The position numbers and the translations under genes were made by a program. This document shows, piece after piece, positions 11,592 through 22,965 of a stretch of 64,000 nucleotides of DNA. The notes under the pieces are model-generated. The model made no database searches, was not told the DNA's origin, and saw only the letters and a program-made list of their open reading frames with translations. The DNA comes from Sandaracinus amylolyticus (lineage in GTDB: Bacteria; Myxococcota_A; Polyangia; Polyangiales; Sandaracinaceae): positions 9,931,945 to 9,995,944 of the forward strand of contig NZ_CP011125.1 of assembly GCF_000737325.1 (NCBI RefSeq), in the 5' to 3' direction. Every line of letters starts with the position of its first letter. The first letter of the stretch is position 1.

Positions 11592-12020
11592 ATGAACACG
11601 AACGAGCTCCATCGCGGACGTCTGATCGACCACCTCCAGCTCGTCACACGCGACCTCGAGCGCAGCAAGCGCTTCTATCGCGCGGTGCTCGACACGATCG
11701 GGGTGCCGCTGGGCGGGGAAGGGCCGGGGTACTTCTGGGCGGACGAGCTCTTCGTCTCGACCCCCGAGAGCCCCGCGGCCCAGGGCCAGGTGACGGGCCG
11801 CGTGCACCTCGCCTTCCAGGCCGCGGATCGCGCGGCGGTCGATCGCTTCCACCGCGCGGCGATCGAAGCGGGCGGCACCGACCACGGCGCGCCCGGCGAG
11901 CGCCCCTATCACCCCGGGTACTACGCGGCGTTCGTGCTCGACCCCGACGGCAACAACATCGAGGTCGTGCACCACGGCCCGGCGCAGCGCTCCGCGAGCT
12001 CGGTGCAGATCAAGTTCTAA
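11592..12020 (+). CDS. VOC (glyoxalase/bleomycin-resistance) family protein
   Basis: MNTNELHRGRLIDHLQLVTRDLERSKRFY... The sequence fits the paired beta-alpha-beta-beta-beta module typical of VOC proteins. The track ORF begins upstream in junk; I take the ATG at 11592. Confidence 0.7.
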   Translation: MNTNELHRGRLIDHLQLVTRDLERSKRFYRAVLDTIGVPLGGEGPGYFWADELFVSTPESPAAQGQVTGRVHLAFQAADRAAVDRFHRAAIEAGGTDHGAPGERPYHPGYYAAFVLDPDGNNIEVVHHGPAQRSASSVQIKF

Positions 12021-13891
12021 GGCGCGTCGGGGAGGCTGCCGAGCATCTGCTCGAGCTGCTGCATCATGCGCGCGGCGTCCTCGGGCGAGCCTCCCCCGCC
12101 CGGCGCCGCGCCGCCCTGCGCCTGGCCCTGCATCAGGCCGCGCAGCACCTGCTCCATCATCGCGCGCATCGCGGGGTCCTGCATCGCGCCCTGCAGCTCG
12201 GGCGGGAGCATCGCGCCGAGCATCGCGCCCGCGTCGCCGCCTCCGAGGTCGGCGTCGCCGTGGCGCTCGTCGAGCCAGTGGCGCGCCAGCGCGCGCACCC
12301 GCGCTGCGTGCCGTCCCGTGGCGAGCGTGTCGATCGGGCCTCGCGCCGGCGCGCTCCGGAACGCGTAGCGCTCGACGTACGCGCGCAGCCCCGCGAAGAA
12401 CGCCTCGTCGCCCAGCTCGGCGCGCAGCGCCGGGTACAGGTACGGCCCCTTGCCGTACACGAGCCCGGCGTACGCGACCGAGGGACCGAACTCGCTCGTC
12501 GCACGATCCACCGCGCCGTCGGCCACGCCCATCATGCGCATCGTGCGGTAGCCCATCGCGACCTGGCGCTCGCCCTCCTGCCGCGCGCGCTCCGCGCCGT
12601 AGCGCTCCTCGACCCAGAGCATCGCGCTCCACTGCGCGAGCGACTCGTCGACCCACGGATGGGCGCGCGAGTCGCTGCCCACGAGCCCGTGCCACCACTG
12701 GTGCGCGACCTCGTGCGCCGTGACGAACTCGAGCATCGCGCTCTGCATGTCGCCCACCGCGCCCGCGCCCGCGCCGCCCAGCATCGCGCCGAGCCCGCCG
12801 AGCCCCGCCGGTCGATAGAACATGCTCGCGACGGTCACGAGCCCGCTGAACTCGACGCCGCCCGCGCCGCCGACCAGCGCGGCCTCGACCACGTCGAGCT
12901 CGCGGTAGGGATACGGACCGAAGCGCCGCTCGAACACCTCGAGCGCGCTCGCCGCCGTCTCGAGCACCCGCCGTCCCGCCTCGCGATCACGCCCGAGGTA
13001 CCACGAGCGCACGTTCACGCCGTTCACGTCGCGCGCGCTGCTCTCGAGCGCGTGGCCCACGAGGAACGAGAAGTCGCGCACCAGGCCCGCCTGCACCGTG
13101 ATCTCGCGCCGCCGCGCCCGCCCCGGCGCGTCGCGCACCGGCAGCGAGCCCGTCTCCACGCCCGTCGCGACGAGCTGCGCGCCCTGGGGCACCACGATGC
13201 GCGCCCGCACGTGGCTCATCCGATCGTTGCCGAGGTCGCCCAGCGTGCCGCGATCGTCGGTCTCCCACCGCCCCCGCTCGCGCCGCGCCAGCACCGCGAA
13301 GAAGCTCGCGAAGCTCGCGATGCCCTCGCCGCGCGCGAGCAGCCCGTAGTCGCCGCCGGTCTCGCCCATCATCCCGGCGAGGCCCTCCTGGCTCTGCGCC
13401 ATCATCGTGGTGCGCGACGCGTCGATCTCGCGCAGGCGCCCCTGCAGATCGAGCTGCACCCGCAGCGTCGCGCCCGGCGCGATCGGCGCCGACGGACGCA
13501 CCACGAGGATCGACGGCGCGGTCTGCTCGATCGTGCAGCTCACTCCGTCGAGGCACTCCCCCGCGATCATCGAGACCGGCGGCGCCTCGCCCGGCGTCGC
13601 GATCACGTTCGCGAAGATGCGCAGCGCGACCTCGCGCCACGGCGCGCGCTCGTCGTTCGTCACGTGCACGACCTCGCGCAGCCCGAACGCGCGCAGCTCG
13701 TCCTCCACCGCGACGTGCAGGTCGTAGTGCTCGAGCTGCTCGAGCCGCGCGACCTCGAGCCGCTCTGGGAGCCCCGCGCGCTGCGACTCGCGCACGTTCG
13801 CGAGCATCGGCGTCGCGTCGTACGACTGCGCCCGAGCGACGCTCGAGACGGCCCCGATCACCAGCGCGATTCCGATCGTGCGCGAGAACAT
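12017..13891 (-). CDS. secreted M1-family zinc aminopeptidase-like protein
   Basis: Signal peptide MFSRTIGIALVIGAVSSVARAQ. Gluzincin motif HEVAHQWWHG with a downstream Glu. The C-terminal tail is Gly/Met/Gln-rich. Confidence 0.8.
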   Translation of the reverse strand: MFSRTIGIALVIGAVSSVARAQSYDATPMLANVRESQRAGLPERLEVARLEQLEHYDLHVAVEDELRAFGLREVVHVTNDERAPWREVALRIFANVIATPGEAPPVSMIAGECLDGVSCTIEQTAPSILVVRPSAPIAPGATLRVQLDLQGRLREIDASRTTMMAQSQEGLAGMMGETGGDYGLLARGEGIASFASFFAVLARRERGRWETDDRGTLGDLGNDRMSHVRARIVVPQGAQLVATGVETGSLPVRDAPGRARRREITVQAGLVRDFSFLVGHALESSARDVNGVNVRSWYLGRDREAGRRVLETAASALEVFERRFGPYPYRELDVVEAALVGGAGGVEFSGLVTVASMFYRPAGLGGLGAMLGGAGAGAVGDMQSAMLEFVTAHEVAHQWWHGLVGSDSRAHPWVDESLAQWSAMLWVEERYGAERARQEGERQVAMGYRTMRMMGVADGAVDRATSEFGPSVAYAGLVYGKGPYLYPALRAELGDEAFFAGLRAYVERYAFRSAPARGPIDTLATGRHAARVRALARHWLDERHGDADLGGGDAGAMLGAMLPPELQGAMQDPAMRAMMEQVLRGLMQGQAQGGAAPGGGGSPEDAARMMQQLEQMLGSLPDAP

Positions 13892-13947
13892 GGACGTCAG
13901 GGTAACCCCTCGCACTCGCACGAGCATTTCGGGCATCCTTCGGCGCG

Positions 13948-14802
13948 ATGAGCCTCGACCCGATCGTCGATCCACGCACGCTGGTGGCGCGGCAGGAGCG
14001 CGCGAACCTGGTCCTCGTCGACGCGCGCAGCGGCAAGGACTCGCGCGAGCGCTTCGAGGCCGGTCACCTCGAGGGCGCGCGCCACGTCGATCTCGATCGC
14101 GGGCTCTCCGCGCACGTCTCGAACCCCGCGCACGGCGGGCGCCATCCGCTGCCCGATCCCCAGATGTTCGCGCGCGTGCTCGCGTGGCTCGGCGTGAGCT
14201 CGCAGAAGCGCATCGTCATCTACGACGACAAGGGCGGCGCGAACGCGGCGGCGCGCCTCTGGTGGATGCTGCGCGCGACCGGTCATCCGCGCGTGCAGGT
14301 GATCGACGGCGGCTACGACGCCGCGGTCGCGGCGGGGATCCCGGTGGTGCGCGGTCCCTCGGAGCACAGCGATCAGACGACCGCGCCGATCGGCGGGTGG
14401 GCCTCGCCGCTCGCCGACATCGACGAGGTCGCGCGTGCCGCGAGCGATCCCGGACGCCTCGTGCTCGACGTGCGTGATCCCTCGCGGTACCGCGGCGAGG
14501 CCGATCCCTTCGATCCCAACCCCGGGCACATCCCGGGCGCGGTGAACGCACCGTACGCGTCGAACCTCGACGTCGACGGGCGCTTCCTGTCGCGCGACGA
14601 GCTCGCGGCGCGGTATCGCGCGCTGATCGGGAACCGCGATCCGAGCGACGTGATCGTGTCGTGTGGATCGGGCGTCACCGCGTGCCACACGCTGCTCGCG
14701 ATGGAGCACGCCGGGCTGCCGGGCGCGAAGCTCTACGTCGGCTCGTTCAGCGAGTGGGCGCGCAGCGGGCGCCCGGTCGCCAAGGGCGACCAGCGGGGCT
14801 GA
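13948..14802 (+). CDS. sseA: thiosulfate/3-mercaptopyruvate sulfurtransferase (tandem rhodanese)
   Basis: Two rhodanese domains. The active-site loop CGSGVTACH is in the second domain. Confidence 0.85.
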   Translation: MSLDPIVDPRTLVARQERANLVLVDARSGKDSRERFEAGHLEGARHVDLDRGLSAHVSNPAHGGRHPLPDPQMFARVLAWLGVSSQKRIVIYDDKGGANAAARLWWMLRATGHPRVQVIDGGYDAAVAAGIPVVRGPSEHSDQTTAPIGGWASPLADIDEVARAASDPGRLVLDVRDPSRYRGEADPFDPNPGHIPGAVNAPYASNLDVDGRFLSRDELAARYRALIGNRDPSDVIVSCGSGVTACHTLLAMEHAGLPGAKLYVGSFSEWARSGRPVAKGDQRG

Positions 14803-14850
14803 TCTGCGCCCCCGGATGGGGACACTCCGGCGTCGCGGAGCACGATCGAA

Positions 14851-15097
14851 GCGTTCGAATGCCCTCCGGTGACGTCGGAGGAGGGCGTTCCGCGCGTTCG
14901 AATGCGCTCCGGGGACGTCGGGGGAGGCTGCTCCAGGCGTTCGAACGCCCTCCGGTGACGTCGGGGGAGGCCATTCCGAGCGTTCGAGCGCGCTCCGGGG
15001 ACGCGCGGGGAGGGCATTCCACCCGGTCGAGAGCGCGCCGGTGACGCCACGGGAGGCGACTCCACGCGTTGGAACGGGCTCCGCGACGTCCTCGCCG
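14851..15097. repeat. tandem array of about 5.7 degenerate copies of a 43-bp hairpin unit
   Basis: Unit GCGTTCGAATGCCCTCCGGTGACGTCGGAGGAGGGCGTTCCGC recurs at 14851, 14894, 14937, 14980, 15024 and 15067. Each unit has a CCTCCG...CGGAGG stem around GTGACGT. Unit 3 begins with the perfect 12-bp palindrome GCGTTCGAACGC. The array is intergenic and has no unique spacers. Confidence 0.85.
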
Positions 15098-15229
15098 GGC
15101 CCTCGCGCGCGCAGCCCGGTGTCCGGCGCGGTCGGCGTCGCGGCGTCGAAGCGCCCGGGCCGACCGCCCGCGTGGCGGTGAGAGACTTTCGCGCCCTCGG
15201 GGTCCTCCTCGGCAGCAAGGAGGCTCCCC

Positions 15230-15571
15230 GTGCGAAGGATACTGCTCCTCTTCCTGGTCCTCGGGTGCGCGCTCGGATGCGCGCGCGAGGGCGACCCAGA
15301 GGCCGAAGGACAGCCGATCGAGGGCCCGCTCCCCGAGGGCTGCGAGACGATCTGCGCGTCCTACGACTCGTCGGAGTGCCGCGTGGTGTGCACGCCGGTG
15401 CCGCCCGACGCGAGCATCCCCGACGATCCCTACGGCAACGGCCAGCCGGTCGACGCGGGCATCGCGCCGATCCCCGAGCCGCAGCCGGTCGACGCGGGGA
15501 TCGCGCCGATCCCCGAGCCGCAGCCGGTCGACGCCGGGCGCGCCGACCCCCAGCACGACCCCTACGCCTGA
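15230..15571 (+). CDS. small Cys-rich lipoprotein with an internal QPVDAGIAPIPEP duplication
   Basis: GTG start with AAGGAGG 7 nt upstream. Lipobox LVLGCALGC. Confidence 0.6.
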   Translation: MRRILLLFLVLGCALGCAREGDPEAEGQPIEGPLPEGCETICASYDSSECRVVCTPVPPDASIPDDPYGNGQPVDAGIAPIPEPQPVDAGIAPIPEPQPVDAGRADPQHDPYA

Positions 15572-15710
15572 TCTCCGCCGGCGACGGATGTGCCGCGGTG
15601 GATCCACCAAGGCGCTCTCTCGACCCACTCCTCGTCCCCACCACCGCGGGGCCGCGCCGTCGACTCGCCCACCCTCGACGGCGCGGCCCGCGCCACCCCG
15701 CGCGACGCCC

Positions 15711-16304
15711 ATGACCGCACCACTTCGCATCCACGCGCTGCCCCATCCCGACGAGCCGAGCGACGTGCAGCTCGTCGAGCGCGCGCTCGCCGGCGATCGC
15801 TGGGCCGAGGAGGCGATCTACCGCCGCCACGTGCACCGGGTGACGACCGTCGCGGCGCGCCTGCTGCGCTGTCGCGCCGACATCGAGGACGTGGTGCAGG
15901 ACGTCTTCCTCACCGCGTTCCGCGACCTCGCGGCGCTGCGCACGCCCGAGCGCCTCGCCGGGTGGCTCGCGGCGAGCACGGTGCATCGGGTGCACAAGAT
16001 CTTCCGGCGCCGGAAGCTGCAGCGGCTGCTCGGGCTCGACCGCAGCGTGCACGACGAGACGCTGGTCGATCAGGCGCGCGACGACGTGACGCCGGAGATG
16101 CGCGCGGAGCTCGCGCTGATCGACCGCGTGCTCGATCAGCTCGCCCACGACGACCGGATGGCGTGGGTGCTGCGCCACCTGCTCGGATACCAGGTCACGG
16201 AGGTCGCGGAGCTCACCGAGTGCTCGCTCGCCACCGTGCACCGCCGCCTCGCGCGCGCTCAGGCGCGCGTCGATGCCAGCTTCGGGAGCGACCGCGATGC
16301 CTGA
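15711..16304 (+). CDS. ECF (group IV) RNA polymerase sigma factor
   Basis: Sigma-70 region 2 (DVVQDVFLTAFRDLAAL) and region 4 HTH (YQVTEVAELTECSLATVHRRLARA). The upstream part of the track ORF is an Arg-rich shadow; the start is the ATG at 15711. Confidence 0.85.
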   Translation: MTAPLRIHALPHPDEPSDVQLVERALAGDRWAEEAIYRRHVHRVTTVAARLLRCRADIEDVVQDVFLTAFRDLAALRTPERLAGWLAASTVHRVHKIFRRRKLQRLLGLDRSVHDETLVDQARDDVTPEMRAELALIDRVLDQLAHDDRMAWVLRHLLGYQVTEVAELTECSLATVHRRLARAQARVDASFGSDRDA

Positions 16305-17382
16305 CCACGAGCGCGCTCGAGACGCTCTGCGCGAGCGACAGGACGAGGTCCGCGTGAAGCGGATGTGGGATCGGATCGACGGCGCGCGGAGGACCACGCC
16401 GCGCACGAGCCCCACGCGGCGCTTGGTGATCGCGGGCGCGACGCTCGCGGCGGCGGCGGTCGCGCTGGTCGTGGTGGCGCCGCGCGGTGCCGAGGATCAC
16501 GAGCCGGTGCCGCTGACGATCGCGGACACGGTGCCGCTCGCGGGCTCGCTCGCGCCGGGCAGCGTGGTGCGGCTCTCGGACGCGTCGCGCATCGAGGTCG
16601 ACGACGACGCGCGGCTCGACGTGCTCGAGAGCTCGGCGCGCACGGTCGCGCTCGCGCTGCGCGAGGGGCGGGCGCGGTTCGAGGTCACGCCGGGCGGACC
16701 GCGGGCGTGGCGCATCGAGAGCGGCGGGGTGACGGTCGAGGTCGTCGGCACCGTGTTCACGGTCGCGCGCAGCGGCGCGCGGGTGACGGTGTCGGTCGAG
16801 CGCGGCTCGGTGCTGGTGCGGGGCGACGACGTGCCCGATCACGTGCAGCGCCTCGATGCCGGCGACTCGATCGAGGTCGGGCCCGCGCCGAGCGCCGAGC
16901 CGGTGCGCGAGGACGCGCCGGTCGTGGTCGCGAGCGAGACGATCGCGGTGGAAGCACCGTCGCCGCCCGCGGTCGAGCGGCGTCCGACGCCGTCGCGCGA
17001 GGTGGATCAGGATCCCGTCGCGTCGCTGCTGGCGAGCGCCGATGCCGCGCGTCGCCGCGGCGATCACGCCGGCGCGGCGCGGCTGCTCGAGCAGGTGGTG
17101 CGCGAGCACGCGGACGATCAGCGCGCGGCGCTCGCGGCGTACAGCCTCGCGCGGCTGCGGCTCGATCGCACGGGCGAGCCGCGCGCCGCGGCGCGCGACT
17201 TCGCGCGGGCGCTCGAGCTCGGTCTCCCCGATCAGCTCGCGGAGGGCGCGCGGGCGGGACGCGCGATCGCGCTGGCGAGGACCGGTGATGCGCGCGCCGC
17301 GGAGGCGCTCGCGGCGTACCTCGAGGCCTATCCCGATGGGCGTTATCGCGCCGAGGTGCTCCGATGGCAGAGCGAGCTCTGA
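16297..17382 (+). CDS. FecR-family anti-sigma factor with C-terminal TPR-like helices
   Basis: Overlaps the sigma factor stop by 8 nt. One TM helix (LVIAGATLAAAAVALVVVA). FecR-like beta domain (RIESGGVTVEVVGTVFTVARSG...RGSVLVRGDD). Confidence 0.75.
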   Translation: MPDHERARDALRERQDEVRVKRMWDRIDGARRTTPRTSPTRRLVIAGATLAAAAVALVVVAPRGAEDHEPVPLTIADTVPLAGSLAPGSVVRLSDASRIEVDDDARLDVLESSARTVALALREGRARFEVTPGGPRAWRIESGGVTVEVVGTVFTVARSGARVTVSVERGSVLVRGDDVPDHVQRLDAGDSIEVGPAPSAEPVREDAPVVVASETIAVEAPSPPAVERRPTPSREVDQDPVASLLASADAARRRGDHAGAARLLEQVVREHADDQRAALAAYSLARLRLDRTGEPRAAARDFARALELGLPDQLAEGARAGRAIALARTGDARAAEALAAYLEAYPDGRYRAEVLRWQSEL

Positions 17383-18407
17383 GCCGCGCCGTCGCGCTGC
17401 TCTTCGTCGGGCTCGTGACGTGGCCGGCGCGCCTCGCGGCGCAGCAGCTCGAGCCGTGCGACGCGGCGTGGCTCGACGTCGATCACGTGCAGGCGATCGT
17501 GCAGGTCGAGCTCGCCGAGCAGTGGGACGCGTCGTTCGACGACACCGTGGTGCGCTTCGAGGAGTGCGCGAGCGAGCAGCCGCGCATCGTGCTGAGCACG
17601 CCCGGCGAGCCCGACGCGACGCTCACGCTGCGGCTCGCGCGCGTGAGCGCGAGGGCCCGGACGCGCCTGGTCGCGCTGGTGATCGCGGAGCTCTTGCGCA
17701 CCCGCGCGCAGGACGAGGAGATCGACGAGGCCGCCGCAGTGATCGCGAGCCCCGAGCCTGCGGTGACGACCCCTGCGCGCGCCGCGGAAGAGCCCGCGCC
17801 GGTGTCCGAGCCGGCGCCCGCGCCCAGCGTCGCGCTCGCGCTCACCGCGCCCGGGCCCGAGACGACGCTGGGGCCCGACGAGCTCGACGACCCGTTCGAG
17901 TCCCCAGCGCGCCCCCAGCCCTCGCCGTGGCGCCTCGGCGCGACGCTCGGCGCGCGCGTGTTCGTCGAGCCGCTGACGCTCGCGGCGCTCGCCGACGTGA
18001 CGCTGCGCTTCGATCGCCTGCTGATCGCGGTCTCGGGCGCGGGCACCCAGCTCGACATCGCGCCCGGGACGGTGCGCCTCGCGCAGCTCACCGGAGGCGT
18101 CGGTGTGCGCGTCCTCGAGCACCGCGGGAGCGTGCGCGTCGGCTGGGACGTGCGCGGCGATGCCGGCGCGGCGCTCGCGGCCGGCGACGGGGGCGGGTTC
18201 TTCGTGGTGGTCGAGTCGACGACGTACACGTGGGTGCTCTCGGCGAGCACCCAGCTCGAGGTGGTCTGGCCGGTCGGCCCGATCGAGCTCGGCCTCACGA
18301 CCGACGTCGGGTACCAGCGCGGGATCGTCGAGGTGAACTCGTTCGGCTCGGCGGGGCTCGGAGGGTTCTTCGCGAGCGCGGGCCTCGCGATCGGGTGGCC
18401 CCTGTGA
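17364..18407 (+). CDS. secreted hypothetical protein
   Basis: Signal peptide; overlaps the anti-sigma factor stop. The C-terminal half alternates hydrophobic residues and ends ...GLAIGWPL, so it may be a beta-barrel-like outer-membrane protein. No family recognised. Confidence 0.5.
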   Translation: MAERALSRAVALLFVGLVTWPARLAAQQLEPCDAAWLDVDHVQAIVQVELAEQWDASFDDTVVRFEECASEQPRIVLSTPGEPDATLTLRLARVSARARTRLVALVIAELLRTRAQDEEIDEAAAVIASPEPAVTTPARAAEEPAPVSEPAPAPSVALALTAPGPETTLGPDELDDPFESPARPQPSPWRLGATLGARVFVEPLTLAALADVTLRFDRLLIAVSGAGTQLDIAPGTVRLAQLTGGVGVRVLEHRGSVRVGWDVRGDAGAALAAGDGGGFFVVVESTTYTWVLSASTQLEVVWPVGPIELGLTTDVGYQRGIVEVNSFGSAGLGGFFASAGLAIGWPL

Positions 18408-18445
18408 TCGTGAGAGCTTCGGCGACCCTCGCGGTCCGTACGGGC

Positions 18446-19747
18446 ATGGGACATCGCTCGGCGCTCCTGCTGGCCGTCGTGCTCGCCGTCGGATGCAGCC
18501 ACGAGACGCGCAGCCTCGAGACCTTCGAGCCAGGGCCGTTCGCGCCCGACGGCGGCTCCCCCGACGGACCGCGCGACCCGATGCTGGCGTTCGGTCAGGC
18601 GCTGTTCTTCGACCCCGAGCTCAGCGGCAACCGCAACATCTCGTGCGGCACGTGCCACGTCCCGTTCCTCACGACGGCGGAGGGCATCCCGCTCTCGCTC
18701 GGCGAGGGCGCGACCGAGCTCGGCCAGTTCCGCACCCGCAACGACGGCGCGGTGATCCGGCGTCACGCGCTCGATCTCTTCCATCGCGTCGAGATGGACG
18801 TGCTCTTCTGGGACGGGCGCGTCGAGCGGCTACCGAGCGGCGAGGTCGTGGGCCCGGTGCCGACGCCGCCGGAGGTCACGCGCGCGCTCGAGCTCGCGTC
18901 GATCGTGCCGCTGCTCGATCGCGACGAGATGCTCGGCCAGCCCGGCGACGTGGCGAGCGACGGCCGCCCCAACGAGCTCGCGATGATCTCGGACGAACAG
19001 CCCCGGGTGATCTGGGCCGCGATCGTCGAGCGCCTGCGCCAGCACCCCGAGTACGACACGCTGTTCGTCCGCGCGTTCGGGCTCGACCCCTCGCAGATGA
19101 GCATCGGGCACGTCGCGATCGCGCTCTCGCACTTCCAGGAAGTGCTCTGGGGCCCGCGCGGCGAGACCCTCGATCCGCTGCTCGAGGCCGAGACCGCGCG
19201 CGGTCGCGCGCTCTTCGAGGGCGACGGCGGATGCACGCGGTGCCACTCGGGCGACCTCTTCACCGACCAGCGCTTCCACGACATCGCGGTGCCGCAGCTG
19301 GGGCCGGAGCTCGACCTCGGGCGCTTCGAGGTGACGGGCGTCGAGCCCGATCGGTTCGCGTTCCGTACCCCGCCGCTGCGCAACGTGGGGATCACGCCGC
19401 CCTACATGCACAACGGCGCGTTCGAGACGCTCGAGGACGCGGTGCGCCATCACATCGATCCGGTCCGGTCGCTCCGGTCCTACACCGGCGCCCATCTCTC
19501 GCCGACGCTCCGCGCGACGCTGCGCAACGACCCGGCGACCCTCGACGCGATCGAGGCGAACCTCGACCCCGCGACGGCGCCGCTGCGCACGCTGAGCGAG
19601 GACGAGGTCCGCTTCATCGTCACGTTCCTGCGATCCCTGTCGAACCCGCAGGAGATGACGCGCCACCCCGAGGATGCGCTCCCGGTGTCGGTGCCGAGCG
19701 GGCTGCCGGTCGATCGCTGGAACGGCACGCGCCATCCGTTCCGCTGA
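18446..19747 (+). CDS. di-haem cytochrome c peroxidase / MauG-family lipoprotein
   Basis: Lipobox LAVGCS. Two CxxCH motifs (CGTCH and CTRCH) in the MauG/CCP arrangement. The long N-terminal extension of the track ORF (from 16856) is a shadow frame. Confidence 0.85.
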   Translation: MGHRSALLLAVVLAVGCSHETRSLETFEPGPFAPDGGSPDGPRDPMLAFGQALFFDPELSGNRNISCGTCHVPFLTTAEGIPLSLGEGATELGQFRTRNDGAVIRRHALDLFHRVEMDVLFWDGRVERLPSGEVVGPVPTPPEVTRALELASIVPLLDRDEMLGQPGDVASDGRPNELAMISDEQPRVIWAAIVERLRQHPEYDTLFVRAFGLDPSQMSIGHVAIALSHFQEVLWGPRGETLDPLLEAETARGRALFEGDGGCTRCHSGDLFTDQRFHDIAVPQLGPELDLGRFEVTGVEPDRFAFRTPPLRNVGITPPYMHNGAFETLEDAVRHHIDPVRSLRSYTGAHLSPTLRATLRNDPATLDAIEANLDPATAPLRTLSEDEVRFIVTFLRSLSNPQEMTRHPEDALPVSVPSGLPVDRWNGTRHPFR

Positions 19748-19820
19748 TCCTTGAGCGAGGCTGGGCGGCAACCTAGAGTCCAGGGCTGGTCGCACGTCGC
19801 ACCACGTCCCGAGGAGCTCC

Positions 19821-21611
19821 GTGATGCGCCGCATCTTGCTCGCTTCGCTCGCCTGCCTCGCTGCGCTCGCGCCGAGCGTGGCCGACGCACAGCCGCCGCG
19901 GGTCGTCGAGATCCAGTACGTCCCGGTGCAGCGCGCGCAGATCGCGATGTGGGTCGAAGATCCCGACGGGAACTTCCTGCGCACGCTCGGGCTGACCCAG
20001 GCGACCGCGTACCGCGGCATCGGCAATCGCCCCGGCGCGTCGCAGATGAACAGCGGCTTCCGCTGGCCGTACGGGCGGCGCGAGGGCGTGCTGCCGGTGT
20101 GGGCGCATCGTCGCGCGGCCGCGGAGGGCGCGGAGCGGTTCCGGCGCGTGATCTTCCAGAACCGTCGCAGCGAGGGCGACGCCTCGCGCAGCTCGGCGGA
20201 CTACTCGGAGGACAGCTACTTCTGTCTCTCGTTCCGCAGCGGCGACGAGGGGATCGACGCGGTGTCGTGCGCGAGCACGTTCAACAGCGACAAGGGCCGC
20301 TTCGTCACCGAGCAGGACGTGACGCGCGGCTACTTCGAGCCGTACGAGCTCGCGCCGGGCGAGACGATCGAGCGCGAGCTCGACCTGTGGTCGCTCTATC
20401 CGCCGCGCCGCGACGCGCTGCGCTGCACGTCGGCCGGCTGTTACGACCACCCCGACGTCGCGACGTTCGTCGACGAGGCGCGCCGCGTGATGCCCGAGAT
20501 CGACGCGGTCACGATGGCGACGCCGCCCGGCGAGACGCCGCAGCGGATGATGGTCACCTGGCCAGCCGAGCTGCCCGACGGCGAGTACCGGCTCTTCGTC
20601 GAGGTGAACACCGAGCTCGACTACAACGCGGAGTGGGGCCCGGACGAGTACCCGACGCCGCTCGGCCCCGACAACGAGCCGTTCGGCGACGAGTACTGGG
20701 ACTGGTGGGCGGAGAACAACGGCTTCCCGTACCGCGGTCAGCCCTCGGTCGTGTACGCGGTGTCGTTCCGCGTCGGCGGAGGCGCGGATCGCCAGCAGAC
20801 GGCGGAGCCCGAGGGCTACGGCTCGCTCAGCGGGATCGGCGACGACGCGGGCGAGATGCACACGATGGACGGGTCGATCAGCAACGACCCCGAGAGCGCG
20901 CCGGGGAGCGGCGCGGATCGTCTGCGGCTGCAGGAAGGCACGTGGCGCCTGCGCGTGACGGTGACCGGCCCCGAGGTGTGCGAAGAGAACGTCGCGCCCG
21001 AGGAGATCGGCTCGCTCGAGATCACGCAGTACGAGGAGCGGCGCGACGCGCATCGCTACGCGCAGCTCGCGTTCGAGGTGCCGGGGGACGACCTCGGGAT
21101 CGCCGAGTACCAGGTGCGCGTCGCGACGCATGCGATCGCGAGCGAAGAGGACTTCCAGCGCGCGCTGCCGGCGAACGCGGCGAGCCTGGACAGCGTCGCG
21201 CTGATGGTCCCGACGAACCGCGCGACCGGTGAGACGGTCGAGGTCGACTTCGGCGGGCTCGCGCCGGAGACGCACTACTGGGTCGCGATGCGCGCGGTCG
21301 ACGCGTGCAACGTCGCGGGGCCGATCGTGGTCGCGGAGTACACGACGCCGCCGGTGCAGTTCACGACGGTCTCGCCGTGCTTCGTCGCGACGGCGGCGTA
21401 CGGGTCGCCGCTCGCCGAGGAGATCGGCGCGCTGCGTCGGTTCCGGGATCGTCACCTGCGCACGAACGCGATCGGGCGCGCGCTGGTCGCGGCATACGAG
21501 GCGGTGGGCCCGACGCTCGCCGGCGCGATCCGCGACGACGAGGACGCGCGCTCGGTGGTGCGCACGCTGCTGAGCCCGATCGTGGCGCTCGCGCGCTGGA
21601 TCGACGGGTGA
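19821..21611 (+). CDS. secreted hypothetical protein with a conserved C-terminal CFxATAAYGS...LRxFRD module
   Basis: Signal peptide MMRRILLASLACLAALAPSVADA. Trp/Tyr-rich middle (EYWDWWAENNGFPYRGQ). The C-terminal stretch CFVATAAYGSPLAEEIGALRRFRDRHLRTN resembles, from memory, a C-terminal module found on surface proteins of several phyla. Confidence 0.65.
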   Translation: MMRRILLASLACLAALAPSVADAQPPRVVEIQYVPVQRAQIAMWVEDPDGNFLRTLGLTQATAYRGIGNRPGASQMNSGFRWPYGRREGVLPVWAHRRAAAEGAERFRRVIFQNRRSEGDASRSSADYSEDSYFCLSFRSGDEGIDAVSCASTFNSDKGRFVTEQDVTRGYFEPYELAPGETIERELDLWSLYPPRRDALRCTSAGCYDHPDVATFVDEARRVMPEIDAVTMATPPGETPQRMMVTWPAELPDGEYRLFVEVNTELDYNAEWGPDEYPTPLGPDNEPFGDEYWDWWAENNGFPYRGQPSVVYAVSFRVGGGADRQQTAEPEGYGSLSGIGDDAGEMHTMDGSISNDPESAPGSGADRLRLQEGTWRLRVTVTGPEVCEENVAPEEIGSLEITQYEERRDAHRYAQLAFEVPGDDLGIAEYQVRVATHAIASEEDFQRALPANAASLDSVALMVPTNRATGETVEVDFGGLAPETHYWVAMRAVDACNVAGPIVVAEYTTPPVQFTTVSPCFVATAAYGSPLAEEIGALRRFRDRHLRTNAIGRALVAAYEAVGPTLAGAIRDDEDARSVVRTLLSPIVALARWIDG

Positions 21612-21684
21612 GCGGCGACGAGATCATCGGCTCGCCCGTTTCCCGCGCGCTCGTCCGGGACCTGCGGGACGAGCACTCCTGTGC

Positions 21685-22053
21685 ATGATCGCGATCGACG
21701 ATCGCGATCCGTCGTGTGTGGTGGTGACGTGGCCGGCGCGCCGGGTCGGCGCGCCGGAGCTCGCGCGGTTCGGGGACGAGGTGATCGCGCGGCTGCGCGC
21801 GCGAGGAGGCGCGCCGGTCGCGGTGCTGGTCGACGTGCGGCGCGCGGCGCCGCTCGAGCCTTCGGCGGTGGCGCGGCTGCGCGAGCTCGACGCGCGGGTG
21901 TGCGAAGCGGGCGTGATCACGCGGCGCGCGATCGTGGTGCCGAGCGTGATCGCGGCGCGTGTGCTCGGCGTGATGATCGCCGCGGCGCGGCCGCGGGTGA
22001 CGACGCGCGCGTTCGTGGACCTCGAGCGGGCGCGCGCGTGGCTCGCGCCGTGA
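21685..22053 (+). CDS. hypothetical protein
   Basis: Coding-like GC3, and it fills the gap up to a convergent gene end. No Shine-Dalgarno and no recognisable domain. Confidence 0.4.
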   Translation: MIAIDDRDPSCVVVTWPARRVGAPELARFGDEVIARLRARGGAPVAVLVDVRRAAPLEPSAVARLRELDARVCEAGVITRRAIVVPSVIAARVLGVMIAAARPRVTTRAFVDLERARAWLAP

Positions 22054-22965
22054 TCACGGGCCGATGGTGTCGAGGTGCTGCGCCCACGCGGCGCGCTGGA
22101 AGACGTCGGCCTCGGTCTCGGCGAGGTCGTCGCACACCGTCTCGCAGCTCGTCGTCGGGGCGCGGGTGAGGCCGATCGGGCTCGCGCCGGTGATCGCGGC
22201 GTAGAGCACGAGCCCCGAGACGTAGCTGCCGCGGAAGCCGGGGTGCTGGCGATCGTCGAAGTAGAGATCGATCGCGGGCAGCTCGTCCCAGACGCGCAGC
22301 CACGCGAGCCCACCCGCGGCGACGCGCACGTCGAGCGCGTGGCCGAGCGCGATCTGCGGGTCCGCCTGGGCGTGGAAGCCCGCGTGATCCGGGCGCTCGA
22401 CGTACGGCGTCGCGTAGAGGATCGGCGTGGCGCCCACCTCGCGCGCGAGCTCGACGATGCGCGTCGCGTAGTCCTCGAAGAGCCCGGGGAAGCCGGGGAG
22501 CGACTCCGCGAGATCGATCGACTCCGCGATGACGATCACGTCGTAGTCGCCGCCCGTGATCGTCTCGGGAAGACGCCGTCCGTCGAGGAGCGGCTGCTCC
22601 CAGAGGTCGCGCAGGTTCGCGCCGCCGAGCTCGTAGCGCACGCCCGCGACGCGCGGGCACGCGTCGGGCGCGCTCTCGCTCAGCGACGAGACGAGACGCG
22701 GCAGGTCCCAGAACGCGATCTGGCTGTTGCCGACGAAGAGCGTGCGGATCGGATCACGACCGACCCAGGTGCCGCACGAAGGCGGGTCCGACGCGTCGGG
22801 CCCGACGTGGTGCCCGCCATCGCGCGGGATCACCCGCGCATCGCGTGGTGCGCGCGCGTCCTCCGAGGGCGCGATCACGCCTCCGTCGAGCTCGTCGGTC
22901 GCGCCCGTCTCGCACGCCGCGAGCGCCAGCGCCGCCCACAGCCAACCCGCCCGACGAACGCTCAC
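22054..22965 (-). CDS. SGNH/GDSL-like hydrolase lipoprotein
   Basis: Lipobox ALALAACETG. An LFVGNSQ block in the position of the SGNH block I. The family assignment is tentative. Confidence 0.55.
   Translation of the reverse strand: MSVRRAGWLWAALALAACETGATDELDGGVIAPSEDARAPRDARVIPRDGGHHVGPDASDPPSCGTWVGRDPIRTLFVGNSQIAFWDLPRLVSSLSESAPDACPRVAGVRYELGGANLRDLWEQPLLDGRRLPETITGGDYDVIVIAESIDLAESLPGFPGLFEDYATRIVELAREVGATPILYATPYVERPDHAGFHAQADPQIALGHALDVRVAAGGLAWLRVWDELPAIDLYFDDRQHPGFRGSYVSGLVLYAAITGASPIGLTRAPTTSCETVCDDLAETEADVFQRAAWAQHLDTIGP

Follow-up and report, generated by a model that had tools for sequence, protein, structure and literature searches.

In a 64,000-nucleotide (nt) stretch of DNA from Sandaracinus amylolyticus (Myxococcota; the whole stretch is referred to as the window and has a G+C content of 72–75%), six consecutive plus-strand genes probably make up two independent units. 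The first, at 15179–19747, is a cassette in which an extracytoplasmic function (ECF) sigma factor and a FecR-type anti-sigma factor are predicted to act together with a small lipoprotein, a 347-amino-acid (aa) predicted outer-membrane barrel protein and a di-haem lipoprotein of the cytochrome c peroxidase (CCP)/MauG superfamily; the second, at 19821–21611, is the gene for a 596-aa secreted protein. The strength of this statement is a joint one that covers the whole of our preferred explanation, i.e. both units, the sensor, its induction, the role of the enzyme and the insertion of the cassette. A first-pass annotation of the same DNA had assigned all six genes to one module. In an open reading frame (ORF) check, all six were recovered at the coordinates given there, and the reported overlaps of 8 nt between the sigma and anti-sigma genes and 19 nt between the anti-sigma and 347-aa protein genes were exact. 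Of the secreted proteins that the annotation had described as rich in Trp and Tyr, the 596-aa one (W 2.0%, Y 3.9%) fits modestly and the 347-aa one (W 2.3%, Y 0.6%), which is Tyr-poor, does not; the values in five neighbouring proteins used for comparison are W 1.6% and Y 2.1%.

The cassette is defined by its recurrence. Starting from contigs that encode homologues of the di-haem protein and members of the 347-aa family, we found the gene set sigma–FecR–320–410-aa protein–CCP_MauG in eight other Polyangia lineages, with unrelated flanks in each and with 42–64% identity among the sigma factors. Specifically, the cassette in L081–83 (loci are numbered with the prefix L) has a CCP protein 51% identical to that of the window and is followed by Uma2 and glycogen genes; L084/85 (CCP 49% identical) continue with EF-hand, DUF6265 and TatA/TatC genes, and L088 (51%) with a PhoD gene; L086 (44%) and L090 (46%) also carry the cassette. 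A Logan contig has the order FecR–barrel–CCP, L091 reads sigma–FecR–barrel up to the end of the contig, and L092 (CCP 44% identical) is rearranged such that the sigma, FecR and barrel genes, in this order, are divergent from genes for a 159-aa protein, a 181-aa DPY lipoprotein and the CCP protein. Of note, the gene 3' of the CCP gene in L090 (8652–10388) encodes a 578-aa protein with cytochrome c and copper type II monooxygenase domains, a periplasmic redox enzyme that may be recruited to the regulon.

The cassettes also have a putative promoter in common. The element TGAGCC(G/A)(T/C)TT...GG(T/C)CC is present in both orientations in the divergent intergenic regions of cassettes, and across cassettes the lipoprotein, sigma and di-haem genes all have the bipartite motif TGAG(C/A)(C/G)-N16-GG(T/C)CC in front of them. 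On both strands of the window, TGAGMS-N16-GGYCC has exactly two matches (0.52 expected), which sit directly upstream of the lipoprotein and di-haem genes. The first ends 24 nt before the GTG start of the lipoprotein gene, with the Shine–Dalgarno sequence AAGGAGG in between, and the motif is kept at this position in 7/8 cassette loci. The second ends 8 nt before the ATG of the di-haem gene; the same motif with a spacing of 8–9 nt precedes the CCP gene in L080 (the second S. amylolyticus strain), L081, L083 and L088, and in L090 the motif lies at the annotated start. Each cassette locus has two to three matches at equivalent positions, while 79 non-cassette loci (1.29 Mb) have 13 scattered ones. 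The conservation of the motif and the location of its only two matches in the window, before the lipoprotein gene and before the di-haem gene, support control of the di-haem enzyme by the ECF sigma factor; this part of the first-pass annotation, the placement of the enzyme in a module predicted to be controlled by an ECF sigma/anti-sigma pair, is thus strengthened by the recurrence of the cassette and by the common motif. A motif-to-start distance of 7–9 nt recurs at the sigma gene in four lineages (L081, L088, L090 and, with a -10 variant, L092) and at the CCP gene in three (S. amylolyticus, L081–83 and L088), which suggests leaderless or near-leaderless transcripts; the distance to the sigma start is 14–15 nt in L084 and L086. 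The copy closest to the sigma gene of the window, 94 nt upstream of it, is degenerate, and strain 2 reads TGAGCC...GGCTC there. A degenerate copy is plausible in this species, where the lipoprotein promoter is co-directional and can also serve the sigma operon.

The 596-aa protein has a different history. Its C-terminus, CFVATAAYGS...LRRFRDRHL, is a CFI_box_CTERM domain (NCBIfam NF041770), matching with 79.5 bits against a cut-off of 40 and with residues 520–588 covering positions 1–69 of the 69-position model. The top 120 database matches to the protein are 48–78% identical and mostly ~590 aa long, and a scan of one genome per species returned at least 576 stretches that encode a relative. 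We fetched the best 79 of these 576 loci with up to 10 kb on each side; all came from Polyangiales or Sandaracinaceae metagenome-assembled genomes (MAGs). By tblastn with all window proteins, 0/79 carry a lipoprotein, sigma, FecR, 347-aa or close CCP gene beside the 596-family gene and, conversely, none of the cassette loci outside S. amylolyticus carries a 596-family gene within the fetched DNA. In the MAG JAFLCL01, which has both, the cassette (L092) and the 596 orthologue (L016) are on different contigs. The first-pass annotation had proposed the 596-aa protein as a member of the module and possible maturation substrate of the enzyme, and had suggested looking for co-occurrence of CCP/MauG homologues with proteins bearing its C-terminal module; this comparison gave no co-occurrence, and the proposal is not sustained. 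The 596 gene also lacks a conserved copy of the cassette promoter motif upstream. A half-match in front of it, TGAGCG...GAGTCC, was rejected because its half-sites are spaced 3–4 nt too widely and, in strain 2, stand ~70 bp from each other.

The gene order in relatives indicates how the two units came to adjoin. A rhodanese gene (13948–14802 in the window) lies 1–2.5 kb upstream of the 596 gene in L012, L017, L020, L022 and L075, and several loci also have, upstream, an M1 peptidase gene (12017–13975, minus strand, in the window). Directly upstream of the 596 orthologue in 12 loci (L002, L005, L006, L008–L010, L012, L015, L017, L020, L022 and L075) is a gene for a YVTN/lactonase-type beta-propeller (e.g. 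L009 8949–9959), a secreted protein of ~337 aa with Lactonase, Cytochrom_D1 and YNCE Pfam matches that is absent from the window. The order in relatives therefore points to peptidase M1–rhodanese–beta-propeller–596 as the ancestral arrangement. In both S. amylolyticus strains, the block 15230–19747 stands where the propeller gene would be, and the cassette has the appearance of an insertion or replacement, between the rhodanese and 596 genes, that is particular to the S. amylolyticus lineage. Of note, distant CCP_MauG-type genes (25–29% identical) occur ~4–5 kb from the 596 orthologue in L005 (5085–5915), L006 (4700–5638) and L009 (4988–5797) and also in L033 and L036; they lie on the far side of the M1 peptidase gene or on the other strand and are too distant and irregular to count as co-occurrence.

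Table 1 Predicted genes and promoter motifs of the cassette and the adjacent CFI-box-CTERM gene
Feature	Position	Strand	Description or basis
Promoter motif TGAGAG-N16-GGTCC before lipoprotein gene	15179–15205	+	Window scan and conservation in cassette loci
Lipoprotein gene	15230–15571	+	113 aa; ORF, lipobox LGC, 6 Cys
Degenerate promoter motif TGTGCC-N16-GGCGC before sigma gene	15589–15617	+	Relaxed scan; weak call
ECF sigma factor gene	15711–16304	+	197 aa; Sigma70_r2, r4_2, Sigma70_ECF
FecR-type anti-sigma gene	16297–17382	+	361 aa; Pfam FecR
Gene for 347-aa predicted outer-membrane protein	17364–18407	+	Signal peptide, N-domain, linker, barrel
Promoter motif TGAGAG-N16-GGTCC before di-haem gene	18411–18437	+	Window scan and conservation in cassette loci
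Gene for di-haem CCP/MauG-superfamily lipoprotein	18446–19747	+	433 aa; CCP_MauG, 2 CxxCH, lipobox AVGC
Gene for CFI-box-CTERM protein, outside the cassette	19821–21611	+	596 aa; NF041770

Within the cassette, the sigma and anti-sigma factors have the features of an ECF system with a cognate anti-sigma factor: the sigma factor has the sigma-2 and sigma-4 domains (Sigma70_r2 41 bits and r4_2 35 bits in Pfam; NCBIfam TIGR02937 64 bits with a cut-off of 42.9), it is gene-coupled by the 8-nt overlap to a membrane anti-sigma factor with one transmembrane helix, and a bipartite promoter is conserved among cassettes, with the degenerate sigma-proximal copy in the window. The anti-sigma factor is predicted to be a single-pass protein with a short cytoplasmic N-terminus, a transmembrane helix at residues 43–61 (by hydropathy), a periplasmic FecR domain (PF04773; 54.5 bits, residues 91–172) and a TPR-like C-terminal region (weak TPR_6 match in Pfam).

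The 347-aa protein had zero family matches in Pfam and NCBIfam. Its family is rare and fast-evolving: an exhaustive HMMER search of 1.84 billion proteins was needed to bring up 22 representatives (E < 1e-3), a word-indexed protein search having retrieved just two relatives, and positional equivalents are 24–37% identical. The alignment divides into a signal peptide, an alpha/beta N-domain (~95 aa) that contains an ARxRxxAL helix and a Cys pair that is usually conserved, a Pro-rich disordered linker of ~60 aa, and a Gly-rich C-terminal beta region; it has no invariant aromatic residue. The AlphaFold2 model (predicted local distance difference test score, pLDDT, 80 overall and >95 in the C-domain) has an eight-stranded antiparallel barrel at residues 189–346, that is, the closed barrel of ~150 residues after a signal peptide that characterizes the OmpA-TM, OmpX and NspA class. 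We therefore describe the protein, on the strength of this model, as a predicted outer-membrane anchor bearing a periplasmic domain on a tether of ~60 residues.

The lipoprotein of the window is acidic and Pro-rich with [D/N]PY motifs and a C-terminal ...HDPYA, and it had zero family matches in Pfam and NCBIfam. An acidic, Pro-rich DPY lipoprotein of 100–240 aa is encoded next to the sigma or CCP gene in every cassette locus, divergently in most lineages and co-directionally in S. amylolyticus; in L092, the gene ends 1 nt upstream of the CCP gene in the same operon. These lipoproteins are barely alignable (E 0.002–10) yet have the [D/N]PY motifs in common, often at the extreme C-terminus (DPYA, DPYQ, DPYSV) and often within Cys-flanked loops (CDPYAGEC, CNPYTGDC). 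An in-frame 39-bp × 2.5 repeat in the lipoprotein gene (15443–15539) encodes QPVDAGIAPIPEP units, and the length of the protein differs between the two strains (113 aa vs 106 aa) with the copy number of the repeat. Comparison of the same two strains (the window and L080) gave 93–94% identity for the flanking genes and the sigma factor and 76% for the lipoprotein, 84% for FecR, 76% for the barrel protein and 80% for the CCP protein; the higher divergence of the envelope-exposed cassette products suggests that evolution of the periplasmic and outer-membrane parts has been fast or diversifying.

The di-haem protein matches Pfam CCP_MauG with 94 bits. Like bacterial CCPs (bCCPs), it has two CxxCH motifs (C67xxCH71 and C263xxCH267, both conserved) and an inter-haem Trp (W122, conserved in 119/120 homologues). 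Among the curated NCBIfam models, TIGR03981, 'His-Xaa-Ser system-associated MauG-like protein', scored best with 216.3 bits (cut-off 340) and aligned end to end (residues 44–398 with model positions 45–411); TIGR03791 (MauG) gave 117.8 bits (cut-off 443.85) and TIGR04039 (MbnH) 107.6 bits (cut-off 362.85), so that none of these three MauG-type cut-offs was reached. All 19 clade members tested scored best on TIGR03981. Sequence matches in the PDB were to bCCPs (95 bits), MbnH (66 bits) and MauG and BthA (~52 bits each). The residues around the haems are the most informative. His336, in AVRHHIDP, aligns with BthA Tyr463 ('AVAFY'), MauG residue 294 and the Tyr of MbnH ('IDIY'); at this position, the BthA Y463M variant reads 'AFM' and the MauG Y294H variant 'ILFH' in the alignment. 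His336 also corresponds to bCCP Met275 (P. aeruginosa numbering), an equivalence that is based only on the spacing from the aligned EEAV272. Among 120 relatives, the position is H in 96, Y in 11 and M in 6, and all cassette-linked enzymes have His there in the motif RHH[LFI]DP. Moreover, where bCCPs have the distal His71 in their 'SIGHGW' loop, the window enzyme has Glu and the family E, Q or T. With His336 in place of both the Met of the His/Met-ligated electron-transfer haem of bCCPs and the Tyr of the His/Tyr-ligated six-coordinate haem of MauG-type enzymes, the second haem is predicted to be bis-His, and the enzyme belongs neither to the canonical bCCPs nor to the MauG type. Because His336 replaces the Tyr ligand, MauG-type bis-Fe(IV) chemistry and long-range protein oxidation are argued against; the MauG Y294H variant, the protein of PDB entry 3orv, reportedly loses bis-Fe(IV) formation and TTQ (tryptophan tryptophylquinone) synthesis. 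The first-pass annotation had called the enzyme MauG/CCP-like and had taken grouping with canonical bCCPs as evidence against a maturase; we find that it is not among the canonical bCCPs and that MauG-like models are the nearest, but that it belongs to a separate clade closest to TIGR03981. An invariant C-terminal P..VPSGLP (residues 413–420) was present in 19/19 aligned clade members, cassette-linked or not, and lies past the region that aligns with solved bCCPs.

Taken together, we propose that the N-domain of the barrel protein would contact the periplasmic part of the anti-sigma factor and that the two would form a trans-envelope sensor resembling FecA–FecR–FecI but without a TonB-dependent transporter. 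An envelope signal would release the sigma factor, and the released sigma factor would induce itself, the lipoprotein and the membrane-anchored di-haem enzyme. With one open haem and one predicted bis-His haem, the enzyme would most likely perform a peroxide-dependent, peroxidase-type oxidation in the periplasm, by which it would detoxify peroxide or act on the co-induced DPY lipoprotein, its best candidate partner. The 596 gene would adjoin the cassette only because the cassette inserted between the rhodanese and 596 genes.

Several points weigh against this explanation. The CCP and 596 genes are on the same strand and close enough that co-transcription by read-through is possible in S. amylolyticus. 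The promoter assignment is drawn from motif conservation, and the sigma-proximal copy in the window is degenerate. That the barrel N-domain touches the anti-sigma factor is pure conjecture, and the peroxidase activity is deduced from superfamily membership; a bis-His second haem is atypical for bCCPs. A distant barrel-family locus (L089) has a FecR and a barrel gene with no CCP gene downstream. Finally, CCP homologues with 40–44% identity stand alone, without the cassette, in L087 (Chloroflexota) and L093, and the enzyme clade is therefore broader than the cassette.

The proposed sensor is best compared with FecI–FecR–FecA. In both, translational coupling links an ECF sigma factor to an anti-sigma factor that spans the membrane once and has a periplasmic FecR domain, the same operon encodes an outer-membrane protein with an extra periplasmic N-terminal domain, and there are sigma-dependent promoters including an autoregulatory one, which in the cassette is predicted from the motif. 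In contrast, the partner in the cassette is, instead of a 22-stranded TonB-dependent transporter, a predicted eight-stranded barrel of ~160 aa on a Pro-rich tether, the C-terminal part of the anti-sigma factor is TPR-like, and a di-haem enzyme and a small lipoprotein take the place of an uptake system as outputs; thus, the FecR domain is present but the defining feature of the FecIRA family, a TonB-dependent transducer with an N-terminal signalling domain, is not. ECF267, which we liken to the cassette by its description only, has the same architecture as described, but its conserved Ser/Thr kinase is found only sporadically near cassettes, in L084, L086 and the Logan contig (Casas-Pastor et al. 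2021, PMC7826278). We found no literature describing the cassette (ECF sigma factor, cytochrome c peroxidase and FecR) or the CCP clade with the RHH motif, and none on CFI-box-CTERM/CFIATAA.

Four other explanations were considered for the enzyme and the 596-aa protein. ECF-controlled oxidative-stress regulons are common, and the di-haem protein could be an ordinary bCCP that reduces H2O2 via a periplasmic cytochrome, making the cassette one of these regulons. We regard this as a possible, if rather unlikely, reading. Solved bCCPs (1EB7, 1NML and 1IQC, ~90–95 bits) are its top PDB matches, well above the score of MauG, and the haem motifs, the inter-haem Trp, the two-domain layout and the region of the Ca-site Asn are as in these enzymes; however, the di-haem protein has His in place of the Met ligand, does not keep the distal His71, and is lipid-anchored and ~100 residues longer, with the conserved VPSGLP outside the bCCP alignments; the cassette has no cytochrome c or azurin gene, and NCBIfam places the protein nearest to MauG-like models.

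Alternatively, the enzyme could act as a maturase within the cassette and modify the DPY lipoprotein (e.g. the Tyr of its C-x-[DN]PY-x3-C loops) or the barrel protein. These are the genes that co-occur with the enzyme, which the 596 gene does not, and such a function would parallel the enzyme–partner pairs MauG/preMADH, MbnH/MbnP and BthA/BthB, with which the cassette enzyme has in common two c-type haems, the inter-haem Trp, the motif PYMHNG...L..A leading to the axial ligand, the absence of the bCCP distal His, and small secreted proteins encoded alongside. Moreover, the DPY lipoprotein is present in all nine lineages with the same promoter motif and in L092 its gene shares an operon with the CCP gene. 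TIGR03981, the curated family closest to the enzyme, takes its name from an association with a system for the maturation of a short-repeat peptide (PMC13128918). We nevertheless consider cassette-internal maturation doubtful. The lipoproteins are of low complexity as well as barely alignable, and DPY could be compositional; the lipoprotein of L090 lacks the Cys pair; the barrel family offers no invariant aromatic residue; and His at the position of MauG Tyr294 (and of BthA Tyr463 and the MbnH Tyr) argues against a stabilised bis-Fe(IV) oxidant. Unlike the known pairs, the enzyme scores far under the MauG and MbnH cut-offs (118 vs 444 and 108 vs 363) and homologues of their substrates are absent; unlike the TIGR03981 system, the cassette has no HxsA–D or radical-SAM genes. 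The probability beyond peroxidase defence and internal maturation we leave to other or mixed roles of the enzyme.

It is very unlikely that the 596-aa protein is an ApbE-flavinylated, DUF2271-type redox protein that exchanges electrons with the di-haem enzyme. DUF2271 is a proven ApbE substrate with a [S/T]GA[S/T] motif, and DUF3570 is another new ApbE substrate domain with such motifs (PMC8238504). In favour of flavinylation, the 596-aa protein touches the cut-off of DUF2271 (PF10029) with a borderline 27.3 bits over a partial stretch (residues 221–265), its family has a near-invariant D-[AT]-[VI]-[TS]-x-A-T-P motif, and its paralogues pair with a DUF3570-like gene. Specifically, in a paralogous branch (L018 onwards), a DUF3570-like gene (80.8 bits in Pfam at L018 12028–13200) lies 3' on the same strand at a distance of ~40–370 bp in ~35 loci (L019–L079), and the pair looks like a conserved two-gene unit. 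However, the x of the 596-family motif is never Gly, so that the known substrate motif is lacking; 35/37 of the neighbouring DUF3570-like proteins are without [S/T]GA[S/T]; no ApbE gene was seen among the L018 neighbours, with the whole genome not searched; and the 596 gene does not co-occur with CCP.

The idea that a MauG-like maturase crosslinks or modifies Trp, Tyr or Cys of the adjacent 596-aa protein can be virtually dismissed. In its favour, both S. amylolyticus strains have the two genes 73 nt apart on one strand, the 596-aa protein combines invariant Trp, Tyr and Cys with loops that are highly conserved and poorly predicted, and MauG-like families are the top NCBIfam matches of the enzyme. 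Against it, neither the 79 596-family loci nor the cassettes of the eight other lineages show co-occurrence, the two genes of JAFLCL01 are on separate contigs, the 596 gene lacks the cassette motif, and His occupies the position of the Tyr ligand on which MauG-type bis-Fe(IV) chemistry depends. Between strains, the 596-aa protein is 94% identical and the CCP protein 80%, so there is no sign of co-evolution.

We also considered the more far-reaching possibility that the cassette is a new trans-envelope signalling device, in which a small outer-membrane barrel on a Pro-rich tether contacts a FecR/TPR anti-sigma factor, and that the bis-His enzyme and the DPY lipoprotein are an enzyme–substrate pair in which a signal would trigger oxidation or crosslinking of Tyr in the Cys-flanked DPY loops. 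Taken jointly, device, pair and signal-triggered chemistry seem improbable to us.

The 596-aa protein itself is a widely conserved secreted protein of Polyangia that is probably located at the surface. Its AlphaFold2 model (pLDDT 74) has a signal peptide, a beta-rich N-domain and three C-terminal helices that correspond to CFI-box-CTERM, and an FN3-like domain lies at ~375–510. The most conserved N-domain loops of the family, GIGNRPGASQMNSGFRWPYGRREG (residues 66–89) and 114–156 (around C135/C150), are the worst-predicted parts of the model (pLDDT <50), as would fit a fold that depends on a cofactor, a metal or a partner.

Scans of the region for other elements gave little. We detected no sigma-70 promoters or intrinsic terminators in 14700–22200, the sole Rfam match in 14700–21800 was a sub-threshold miRNA inside a tandem repeat, and PHROGs and PADLOC gave zero matches for any protein of the region. 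The 427-bp gap between the rhodanese and lipoprotein genes, at the left edge of the inserted cassette, contains a 43-bp tandem repeat in 5.6 copies (14851–15090), which, the sub-threshold miRNA aside, has no Rfam match and has an unconvincing folding z of -1.9 and no other good copies in the window; strain 2 has an equivalent array (43/86 bp × 5.8; L080 4380–4630). Immediately 3' of the 596 gene is an ORF for a 122-aa SpoIIAA-like/DUF7793 protein (21685–22053), which overlaps the 596 gene by 4 nt in strain 2 (L080) and was not found beside 596-family genes in the 79 other loci.

This analysis corrects an attractive inference from adjacency, that of a functional link between the di-haem enzyme and the 596-aa protein, and puts in its place a five-gene ECF regulon that can be tested, has a defined promoter motif and is conserved across Polyangia. 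The 596-aa CFI-box-CTERM family occurs almost throughout the Polyangiales, and its two conserved partnerships, with the beta-propeller gene and with the gene for the DUF3570-like barrel, are starting points for its study. The di-haem enzyme represents a large clade of the CCP/MauG superfamily (thousands of sequences) in which the axial ligand is mostly His and not Met or Tyr; if the signal-triggered modification of the lipoprotein were true, this would be a new branch of MauG-like protein chemistry without a Tyr-ligated bis-Fe(IV) state. ECF systems that have a FecR-type anti-sigma factor but no TonB-dependent transducer are poorly understood, and for these the cassette offers a compact outer-membrane partner and two reporter genes.

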